Source: a virus | Taxonomy: Duplodnaviria; Heunggongvirae; Uroviricota; Caudoviricetes | Reading direction: 5' to 3' (one strand) | Length of the DNA stretch: 64,000 nt | Virus record (IMG/VR): IMGVR_UViG_2703718775_000013 | Shown: positions 3,001 to 6,000 of the stretch, one piece after another | How positions within the stretch are numbered: the stretch's first letter is position 1 | Layout of the letters: every line of letters begins with the position of its first letter | Position numbers: made by a program

Positions 3001-6000
3001 TGGATGATGGCGCGGCAACACCATTTTTTCTGACGCGGCAAAACAGGTAGTTATTCGGATCATCAGCTACACCAGAGACAGAAATCCATCGCTCAACCAG
3101 TTTAGTTACCCCCAGGCTAAGTGCCTTCTCTACACCAGCGGTGCTAACCAGCGTTTTCGTTCTGCCAATATGGATTAACATTCTCCCACCGTCAGTACGT
3201 GAGATATCTTTAACCCTGATCCTAGAAATTTCGGCTATACGTAACAGGGTGTTATAAGCAATCCCCAGAAATGCCAGATTACGTATATCCTGGCAGCGAT
3301 CGCTATTTTCCATGAGTGAACGAACCTGGTCGAAATCAGTGCGTTCGAACGCCAGCGCCTGTTTTGCACGCTCACCGGCATCAACGTTTTCTTTTCGGAT
3401 CCGTCGCATGACCAGTGAAACAGCATTGCTGTCACTTGGTCGTGGCAGCCCGGACCGACGATGAAGCATGTTTAGCTGGCCCAAATGTTGCTGGATAGTT
3501 TTTACTGCCAGACCACGCGCCTGAAGATATAGAAGGTAATCGCGAACATCTTCAGGTTCTGCGGGAAACCATTTCCGGTTATTCAACTTGCACCATGCCG
3601 CCCACGACCGGCAAACGGACAGAAGCATTTTCCAGGTATGATCAGAAAACGCCTGGCGATCCCTGAACATGTCCATCAGGTTCTTGCGAACCTCATCACT
3701 CGTTGCATCGACCGGCAATGCAGGCAAATTTTGGTGAACGGTTAACGAATTAGTCATTTATTATGCGTGATTTTAACAGTTAAGCCTTGTTCATGAAGTA
3801 TCTCATCAATAATTCGAATCACATCCCCTGGTAGATCATCGTTCTCGAAATATCTGTGATCGGGGATTTCTACAGTGATTGGGGTTGCTGCTTTATGCAA
3901 AATCCGAACAATCTTTTTTTCTTTTTTGCATGTTGCATATTCAGCCTCTTCGATATCTATCCAGCTCGCACCATCAAATTGCTGGTAAACCCGAGTGTAT
4001 AGTAAGCGGTTTCGCTTTACTTCTTCTGCTAACTCCCAAATTGCAACAGCCATAGCACGTTCATTTTCATTCGTTCCAGGGTTAGCAGCTTTTTGTTTTG
4101 CGTCGTTCAGTAAGGCGTTTACCTTGGCATCTGTCAGGCCATTAAACATTCATCACCTCATGATCAAGTTAAATTATTGTTTTCAGCAGAGTGTACAGGA
4201 TTGGCTCTGCCTTTACCTGGTTATGGTTCTCGTCATAGAAACGCCAGCGACCGCGCGTGCGTTCTATTTTCTCTTCACCGCGAGATAATGACAGTTGGTA
4301 ACTATCACGCTCAAACCATTTTGCCCGCCAGTAACCACGGTTTTTCTCAAGCTCAAGATGAGTGGACACTTTAGCAGCTGAATATCCCATTTTTCACCTC
4401 TGATTGATTGGTGGTGCTAAGTGCGCTACGCGAAATCTGGAGCACTAACACTGCCAACATTTCGCAGATTTTACGTAGCGCAACCTTGATCAAATGATCA
4501 AGTGATCACTATTTGACCTGATAAGGTATTGAACTGTATGGATTTACAGGTAAATTAATCATGTTCAATAACCCTTAAGATAACTTCGTATAATGTATGC
4601 TATACGAAGTTATCAGATCCGAAGAGGAGTTTACGTCCAGCTGCGCACAAAAATCAAGAATTATTAGAGCAATAAATTTAGAGAGAAAAATCCCACTCCA
4701 CCAGCTAAAAACTGGATTGTTTTTCATAGTTGTTTGACAATTGCTCTAATAAATTATAGTTTTGCCGTCGTTACGTAATACGACTTTGGATTCACTATTT
4801 AATGTGTCTTCAGCGTTGTAGAGCGGCTCAGAAGGAAATGAGCAAACAGGGAAACCTTATACAACGGCATTACAGCTATGCATTGCTCATCTTACACACA
4901 GCGCAATGTTGTTAGATTACCCCAGCATGGATCATGGGTGAAACAGTAGGTCAGAGCTTCAGGCTCTGTGTTGTCAATACAGTGAGGCATAATTATGGCT
5001 TTCATTCAACCAACCATCGACGACGTTAGACATTGCTCTAACGCTTTATCTGTAGACCCTGCCGAAACCGACGCTGCCCGCGCCATTGCTGAACACTACT
5101 CAAAGATATCCAATCAGGAGTACCGCATCACCCAAGACGACCTGGATGACCTCACTGACACAATCGAATATCTCATGGCAACTAACCAGTTAGACTCACA
5201 ATAAATGCACTAATAAATCTATTATTTTTGTTTGATCCCTCTATAATATAGGTCAGTAATGACCGGTTTTCTCAGCCGGGCGTTATTGACCATGTCAATT
5301 CTGGAGGAGGATCAATGATAAATTATGTCTACGGCGAACAACTGTACCAGGAGTTCGTCAGCTTCAGGGATCTCTTTCTAAAAAAAGCTGTTGCACGCGC
5401 CCAACACGTTGATACAGCCAGCGACGGTCGTCCTGTACGCCCGGTTGTCGTTCTACCGTTCAAAGAAACTGACAGCATTCAGGCTGAAATTGATAAATGG
5501 ACTTTAATGGCGCGGGAACTGGAACAGTACCCAGACCTCAATATCCCAAAGACTATTTTATATCCAGTGCCTAACATCCTTCGCGGTGTGCGTAAGGTTA
5601 CAACTTATCAGACAGAAGCTGTGAACAGCGTCAACATGACCGCTGGCCGCATTATTCATCTGATTGATAAGGACATTCGCATCCAAAAAAGCGCGGGGAT
5701 CAATGAGCACAGTGCGAAATACATAGAGAACCTGGAAGCAACAAAAGAGCTAATGAAGCAGTACCCGGAGGATGAAAAATTCCGTATGCGCGTACACGGC
5801 TTTAGCGAAACAATGCTGCGCGTCCACTACATTTCCAGTAGCCCTAACTACAATGATGGTAAATCAGTTAGTTACCATGTGCCACTGTGTGGCGTGTTTA
5901 TCTGCGATGAAACTCTCCGTGATGGAATTATCATCAACGGTGAATTCGAAAAAGCAAAATTTAGCCTTTATGACTCCATAGAACCGATCATCTGCGACCG

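Follow-up and report, generated by a model that had tools for sequence, protein, structure and literature searches.

Few recombination systems have been studied as closely or used as widely as Cre-lox, and descriptions of its natural operon usually draw on phage P1 only. The promoters of cre in P1 (pR1-pR3) were reportedly described by Sternberg et al. in 1986, and the annotation of P1 is said to go back to Lobocka et al. in 2004. In the P1 record AF234172 the right arm of lox ends at nucleotide (nt) 17, cra occupies 207-428 (73 amino acids, aa) and cre starts at 436, so that cra and cre are separated by 7 nt, and loxP and the cre ATG by 418 nt. Here we describe a variant of this operon in the IMG/VR virus record IMGVR_UViG_2703718775_000013 (Caudoviricetes), of which we analysed a stretch of 64,000 nt, called the window below. 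The element is a P1-like plasmid prophage, and between cra and cre it carries an open reading frame (ORF) of 131 codons, here named orf131, whose stop overlaps the start of cre. The order cra-orf131-cre is a real variant of the classic operon, apparently undescribed in the literature, and we favour the reading that orf131 is an accessory gene carried as cargo by this operon.

Two further systems are close enough to serve as comparisons. Morons, a concept that comes from the lambdoid phages, are accessory genes that are present or absent between the same flanks, and classical morons carry a promoter and a terminator of their own. The xis genes, or genes for recombination directionality factors (RDF), lie just upstream of tyrosine recombinase genes and often overlap them, as in the xis-int pair of lambda.

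All genes of the module in the window are read on the minus strand, in the order loxP, three TGATCA sites, the 73-aa ORF, orf131 and cre. The original prediction had placed the 73-aa and 131-aa ORFs downstream of the three TGATCA sites, with the cre ATG overlapping the stop of the second, and the coordinates of both ORFs bear this out (Table 1); bases 3757-3754 read ATGA on the minus strand. It had also put the distance from loxP to cre at about 820 bp, set against some 400 bp for P1, and the counts are 822 nt here and 418 nt in AF234172, a net difference of 404 nt. Aligned with this interval, as had been proposed, reference P1 is without the 131-aa ORF, and the distance from the cra stop to the cre start is 7 nt there against 411 nt here. 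Of the two ORFs upstream of cre only orf131 is extra, the 73-aa ORF being P1 cra, already annotated as ORF1 in X03453 (1986). Because records of the P1/P7 type have cra and cre 7 nt apart and no 131-aa gene, orf131 is extra DNA relative to P1. In that sense the predicted insertion stands; the comparison shows no polarity, that is, gain here as opposed to loss in P1.

Apart from orf131, the module is that of P1. It has a canonical loxP, the LexA box, P2coi and the Dam sites in the P3cre -35 region; Cra and Cre are 93% and 98.5% identical to their P1 orthologues; and putative counterparts of the three cre promoter hexamer pairs stand at the P1 positions, the P2cre -35 and the P1cre -10 each differing from P1 by one change. 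What differs is the cra-cre junction, where P1 cre follows cra after 7 nt with a weak Shine-Dalgarno sequence (SD), whereas here orf131 intervenes and cre has no SD. The location of cra has been noted before (PMC2409434), and the gene is non-essential in P1 (PMC10695390, Table 2).

orf131 is a gene under purifying selection

The substitution pattern of orf131 is that of a protein-coding gene. Of the 72 sites that segregate among eight alleles, 43 are third codon positions (p = 1e-5), and the comparison with the Salmonella allele gives a ratio of nonsynonymous to synonymous divergence (dN/dS) of 0.11. Intact alleles are all exactly 131 codons long at nucleotide divergences of up to 12%. Amino-acid variation is found mainly in residues 61-100, and the C-terminal 31 residues are invariant (dN 0-0.014, dS 0.5-0.9, dN/dS about 0.02). 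With dN near 0 in this part at a dS of 0.5-0.9, it is the amino-acid sequence that is constrained, not the DNA. When the two E. coli alleles are compared, the differences are spread evenly over codon positions and dN/dS is 0.35-0.53, on small counts, a pattern that could reflect relaxed or diversifying selection on the middle part of the gene. The ATGA overlap is kept in every allele found, among them eight other records (L002, L003, L005, L018-L021 and L034 in our numbering), and the SD of orf131 is conserved in L002 and L003.

That the frame is a chance ORF in a non-coding spacer, or a decaying pseudogene, is scarcely credible. Such a reading could draw on the lack of a homologue beyond the locus and of any domain match, on a structure prediction of low confidence and on a few truncated copies in the databases (P0006, of 92 aa, P0007 and L033). 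Sequencing error most likely accounts for the truncated copies: in L033 cre is frameshifted too, and both P0006 and L033 shift frame at a run of A6-G-A7. The third-position bias, the low dN/dS over the whole gene and above all at the C-terminus, the constant length of the intact alleles and the strong, conserved SD all stand against this reading, and the substitution pattern effectively refutes it. In the window the A6-G-A7 tract lies at 3914..3927, where it encodes KKEKK; slippage there would abolish orf131 together with any coupled translation of cre.

The product of orf131 is an orphan, with no detectable relatives outside the cra-cre locus. It is computed to be a hydrophilic, soluble protein of 15.0 kDa with an isoelectric point (pI) of 5.6 (5.58). 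Pfam and NCBIfam gave only sub-threshold noise, and in PADLOC-DB 2.0 no defence protein matched, the sole hit being a spurious one to JetC (E 0.01, 11.7 bits). A full-length match was found in PHROGs (phrog_20152, E 3.8e-92), a family labelled 'unknown function'. A word-indexed search of 5.8 billion proteins returned six clusters, all of them orf131, and a HMMER profile scan of 1.84 billion representatives returned one true cluster, one frameshifted fragment and one spurious repeat protein. The best match of a profile search against the sequences of the Protein Data Bank (PDB) was a designed coiled coil (E 0.74). The AlphaFold2 model, with a helical N-terminal half and a beta-alpha-beta C-terminal part, has a predicted local distance difference test score (pLDDT) of 53, low because the alignment holds only seven near-identical rows; a Foldseek search of PDB and BFVD with it found nothing with E < 1 and was not used as evidence. 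No paralogue was found within the window, and hhalign detected no relationship of orf131 to Cra or to a 143-aa ORF of a Pantoea element described below. For orf131 these searches give no domain or fold match; the other ORF upstream of cre encodes the known protein Cra.

Occurrence of orf131 and its exchange between backbones

orf131 is a minority component of P1-type elements. It is absent from all 24 P1-like phage records searched (P1, P7, phiW39, SJ46 and RCS47 included), whose alignments split around it, and tblastn with its protein against 50,697 phage records gave no match. Among plasmids and bacterial genomes we found it in 14 of 704 P1-like plasmids (PLSDB) and in 32 complete E. coli genomes out of 695 with a P1-type cre, mostly Shiga-toxin-producing strains of O111:H8, O111:H2, O26 and O103; IMG/VR adds 11 contigs with the gene, and metagenomes one further contig. 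The great majority of P1-type cre loci, about 95-98%, are without orf131, and every copy whose surroundings can be read (about 25 contexts) lies between cra and cre. The 1.1-kb interval of the window is 100% identical in the E. coli plasmids pO26_EH2252_2 (AP027178) and AP027163. Strain 06-00048 of E. coli has the second E. coli allele (allele B) in the same cra-orf131-cre order twice, on plasmid CP012497 and in the chromosome record (L005, NZ_CP015229.1 1872341-1884751); around the chromosomal copy lie P1 genes (terminase, c1, ref, mat), followed by an autotransporter gene, and an integrated P1-like prophage would account for this, or else an artefact of assembly.

The sequence of orf131 has been public since the deposit of pO111_2 (strain 11128, NC_013370), where it is WP_000481733.1 (100% identity), as a 'hypothetical protein' only. 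Our literature search found no paper that mentions WP_000481733.1, and the cra-cre interval is not a topic of the phage-plasmid surveys that we searched. A conserved orphan between the known cre promoters and cre is present in about 2-5% of natural P1-type elements. Plasmids of Shiga-toxin E. coli of O111, O26 and O103 are notable carriers, and cre has no ribosome-binding site of its own in them.

A Salmonella lineage of P1-like elements shows that orf131 has a history distinct from that of its flanks. Compared with the window, Cre is 81% and Cra 60% identical in this lineage, and the orf131 product is 88.5% identical. The lineage includes filled alleles, with cra-orf131-cre and ATGA (L003, L004, L018-L020), and empty ones, on plasmids with 7 nt between cra and cre (in L016 and L017). 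Over about 8 kb the backbones of the window and L003 are 67-77% identical (BLAST), and the synonymous sites of cra and cre are saturated; orf131 is 88% identical at the nucleotide level, with a dS of 0.49, and its divergence differs from that of cre with p = 1.6e-12 (Fisher). Because orf131 is far less diverged than its flanks, it must have moved between diverged backbones. Its G+C content (0.406) is lower than that of cra (0.461), of cre (0.505) and of the window (0.47). Read most simply, the transfer would have gone by homologous recombination through the conserved 3' end of cra and 5' end of cre, a route which would also explain why orf131 is found only at the cra-cre junction, and the tract 4215-3735 is the apparent unit of horizontal exchange. 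What the alleles record is an old presence/absence polymorphism of orf131 in two diverged lineages, plus horizontal exchange.

The direction of the change is a separate matter. orf131 might be ancestral to the P1 family, the 7-nt spacer of P1 and P7 being a deletion that became the majority form; this alternative concerns history only and is compatible with the operon mechanism proposed below. Filled and empty alleles do occur in two deeply diverged lineages, and the spacers of the empty junctions differ between them (GTGTTAA and GCAGACA), as from independent events. Further, the dS between the E. coli alleles of orf131 (0.10) is about that of the flanks (0.09-0.13), which is consistent with long residence. 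We nevertheless consider an ancestral orf131 unlikely, since the low divergence of the gene relative to its flanks implies at least one transfer into an existing backbone, its G+C content is below that of its neighbours, and an element from Pantoea, whose Cre is 64% identical, has cra directly before cre and no orf131.

Two candidate traces of these events were dropped. The start of P1 cre as a hybrid of the orf131 and cre starts, which would have been proof of a deletion, could not be upheld. MAFFT aligned these regions, but a count over the sequences is not discriminating: P1 shares three positions only with orf131 and four only with cre, and of 10 upstream bases it agrees at 5 with the one as with the other. 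The N-terminus MTNSLTVH of Cre (MSNLLTVH in P1) does not travel with the cassette, as the empty alleles in L016 and L017 have MTNSLTVH too.

Expression and possible function of orf131

What follows on the expression of orf131, on its coupling to cre and on its functional class we infer from sequence. orf131 is preceded by counterparts of all three cre promoters annotated in P1, and a consensus scan of 3650-4700 found no other sigma-70-like site and no terminator on the coding strand. With the promoters upstream and no such element in between, cre should be transcribed only through orf131. We therefore propose that orf131 would be transcribed from the three cre promoters, having no promoter or terminator of its own. 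P1cre would here be directed into orf131, its transcripts starting about 10-15 nt before the gene and just ahead of the SD, whereas in P1 they would start just before the cre ATG.

The translation signals differ sharply between the two genes. The 19-nt spacer between cra and orf131 contains GAGGTGA, and the calculated anti-SD energy is -6.9 kcal/mol for orf131, close to the -7.1 kcal/mol of cra. For cre the value is +1.5 kcal/mol in all filled alleles, that is, there is no SD, against -2.5 kcal/mol in P1 and -2.3 kcal/mol in L016, both empty. The orf131-cre pair thus has both marks of a coupled pair, a stop/start overlap and a downstream gene without an SD of its own, and cre is most likely coupled translationally to orf131. 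RNA folding around the two starts gave structures no more stable than those of shuffled sequences (z = 0.4), and an E-value scan of 3400-5000 against Rfam gave eukaryotic noise hits only. Because no RNA structure sequesters the cre start, any coupling should work by termination and reinitiation and not by unmasking.

Taken together, orf131 would be translated from its own strong SD, and cre, displaced by 404 nt from its promoters, would be reached by ribosomes that finish orf131 and begin again at the ATG that overlaps its TGA. Reinitiation would then replace the P1 arrangement of a 7-nt gap and a weak cre SD. With ribosomes restarting at ATGA, the translation of orf131 would set the amount of Cre, so that Cre dosage in elements with orf131 is probably governed by this upstream gene.

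As to what orf131 does, we give a probability of about 0.6 to the reading that it is an accessory ('moron-like') cargo cassette riding the cra-cre operon, which is expressed constitutively and in the lysogen. This reading is preferred because Cre works without orf131 in 95-98% of elements, because no change in Cre or loxP accompanies the gene, and because it is foreign in composition and behaves as a horizontally exchanged presence/absence unit. The cassette would spread among diverged P1-like backbones by recombination through the cra and cre flanks. Its product, a small, acidic and soluble cytoplasmic protein, would bind some other protein of the lysogen and so benefit the phage-plasmid or its host through exclusion, defence or counter-defence, and would not be a required part of Cre-lox recombination. 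Should orf131 be cargo of this kind, clinically relevant strains would hold in it a candidate for a new function in defence, counter-defence or exclusion.

The resemblance to morons is considerable. Like them, orf131 is present or absent between identical flanks, has a lower G+C content than its surroundings, is exchanged among related phages, has no core phage role and lies in a region expressed in the lysogen. It differs in being embedded in an operon instead of forming an autonomous transcription unit, with the translation of downstream cre apparently dependent on it.

Several points weigh against the cargo reading. The functional class finds no support in the searches (Pfam, NCBIfam, PADLOC and PDB all null, a model with pLDDT 53, fold matches with E of at least 1). 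A generic moron would be expected in other phage contexts too, yet all of the about 25 contexts are cra-orf131-cre, and occurrence in a single context would suit a function tied to Cre as well. orf131 is without the private promoter and terminator of classical morons, and, as the promoter scan was a crude consensus test, cre may have a weak internal promoter that it missed.

The restriction to one locus is also an argument for orf131 as a dedicated partner of Cre, held at a fixed ratio by the coupling and modulating recombination through inhibition, directionality or the timing of cyclisation as against dimer resolution. In 5.8 billion proteins, in IMG/VR and in metagenomes the gene was found only just upstream of cre, with ATGA. 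Between the lineages its product is better conserved (88.5% aa identity) than Cre (81%) or Cra (60%), and its invariant C-terminus is under strong constraint at the protein level. We still hold such a partnership to be improbable. Spread through flanking homology explains the single locus equally well; orf131 always accompanies cre, yet about 95-98% of P1-type cre genes are without it; loxP is canonical, and the MTNSLTVH N-terminus of Cre occurs in empty Salmonella alleles as well. That Cre needs no accessory protein is established knowledge and speaks against a partner; nor does Cre-lox need a directionality factor.

The likeness to xis-int is one of gene layout only. As with a xis gene, orf131 is a small ORF that directly precedes a tyrosine recombinase gene, shares its operon and overlaps its start codon with the stop. 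Xis and RDF proteins are small, basic and DNA-binding, whereas the orf131 product is acidic (pI 5.58), has no hit in Pfam or NCBIfam, no helix-turn-helix or winged-helix match, no detectable DNA-binding fold and no detectable similarity to Xis, and most Cre genes do without it. A narrower form of the idea, in which orf131 would be a lineage-restricted modulator of Cre-lox (or of Cra) that is made in a fixed ratio to Cre by reinitiation, binds Cre by its C-terminal 31 residues and tunes cyclisation or dimer resolution, appears to us distinctly improbable. If it were true, orf131 would be the first accessory protein for a textbook accessory-free recombinase, and if it acts on Cre at all, a major genetic tool would gain a new regulator from nature. 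The protein is small, soluble and easily tested.

Layout of the locus and neighbouring genes

The coordinates of the module are collected in Table 1. Positions of the P1 promoters were carried over by alignment from the annotation of AF234172.

Table 1. Features of the lox-cre region in the window.
Feature	Position	Strand	Basis and remarks
loxP, canonical, 34 bp	4580..4613		ATAACTTCGTATA-GCATACAT-TATACGAAGTTAT as minus strand; direct reading; aligns with P1 lox right arm
TGATCA trio (Dam GATC)	4508-4503, 4500-4495, 4492-4487	minus	sequence and P1 annotation
P3cre (pR1) counterpart	4468..4493	minus	-35 TTGATC 4493-4488, -10 TAAAAT 4473-4468; both as in P1
cra, 73 aa	4169..4390	minus	93.2% identity with P1 Cra; phrog_804, E 1e-32
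P2cre (pR2) counterpart, within cra	4285..4314	minus	-35 TTGAGC (P1: TTGATC), -10 CATTAT
P1cre (pR3) counterpart, 3' end of cra	4173..4197	minus	-35 TGTACA, -10 ATAAT (P1: ATTAT)
Putative SD of orf131, GAGGTGA	4153..4159	minus	3 nt before ATG; motif and spacing as for the cra SD
orf131, 131 aa	3754..4149	minus	extra gene relative to P1; match to phrog_20152
ATGA overlap, orf131 TGA and cre ATG	3754..3757	minus	direct reading
cre, 343 aa	2726..3757	minus	98.5% identity with P1 Cre
High-identity tract against L003	3735..4215	minus	sliding-window identity about 85-95%; about 45 nt of cra end, orf131 and about 7 cre codons

The stretch from loxP to the Dam cluster has a LexA box and a divergent P2coi (4532..4551) identical to those of P1, and SOS control of the coi/immC side thus appears intact. 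The Dam sites themselves are not those of P1 throughout. Dam sites 2 and 3 of P1, in or beside the P3cre -35, account for two TGATCA sites of the trio; the third, beside them, provides an extra GATC (4504..4507, or 4507-4504 as read) where P1 has GACC. P1 Dam site 1 is lost, the window having GATT at 4557..4560, and so is the GATC in the P2cre -35 (4309..4314, now TTGAGC). A new GATC at 4162..4165 falls at the expected P1cre transcription start, just before the SD of orf131, and is present in the E. coli alleles and not in the Salmonella alleles. This altered pattern could change the control of the cre operon by methylation.

Cra belongs to a narrow family; its model is all-beta with pLDDT 62, and a fold search with that model found no match. 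The label 'creatininase', which is common on Cra at NCBI (e.g. WP_065226844.1, and hundreds of entries in cluster P0010), is probably an annotation artefact derived from the gene symbol cra. It is implausible that a protein of 73 residues, restricted to P1-like elements and without a match in Pfam or NCBIfam, should be a creatininase.

At the left end of the window, an ORF on the minus strand that runs off the end (3..671) contains a SIR2-like domain (PF13289, E 3e-22); its counterpart in AP027178, the identical plasmid, is annotated 'SIR2 family protein' and is 1,308 nt long. The adjoining ORF (728..1396) is the unnamed gene after ref in AP027178, and in CP015229 its position is annotated 'maturation control protein'. 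At the position of the SIR2 ORF, P1 presumably has its res/mod restriction genes, and the allele-B element L002 has a PIN_12/PIN_8 protein. This position looks like a variable slot for defence genes.

In the Salmonella and Pantoea elements, the interval between lox and cre holds further genes with no counterpart in P1 (L003 2699..3769, L016 1211..2281, L008 1277..2335). They represent a conserved ORF of 352-356 aa without a Pfam match, the end of which overlaps the start of cra by 4 nt in Salmonella. In the Pantoea element (L008) an ORF of 143 aa (2332..2763) is added between this gene and cra. It would seem that accessory genes gather throughout the stretch from lox to cre, in an operon with cre.

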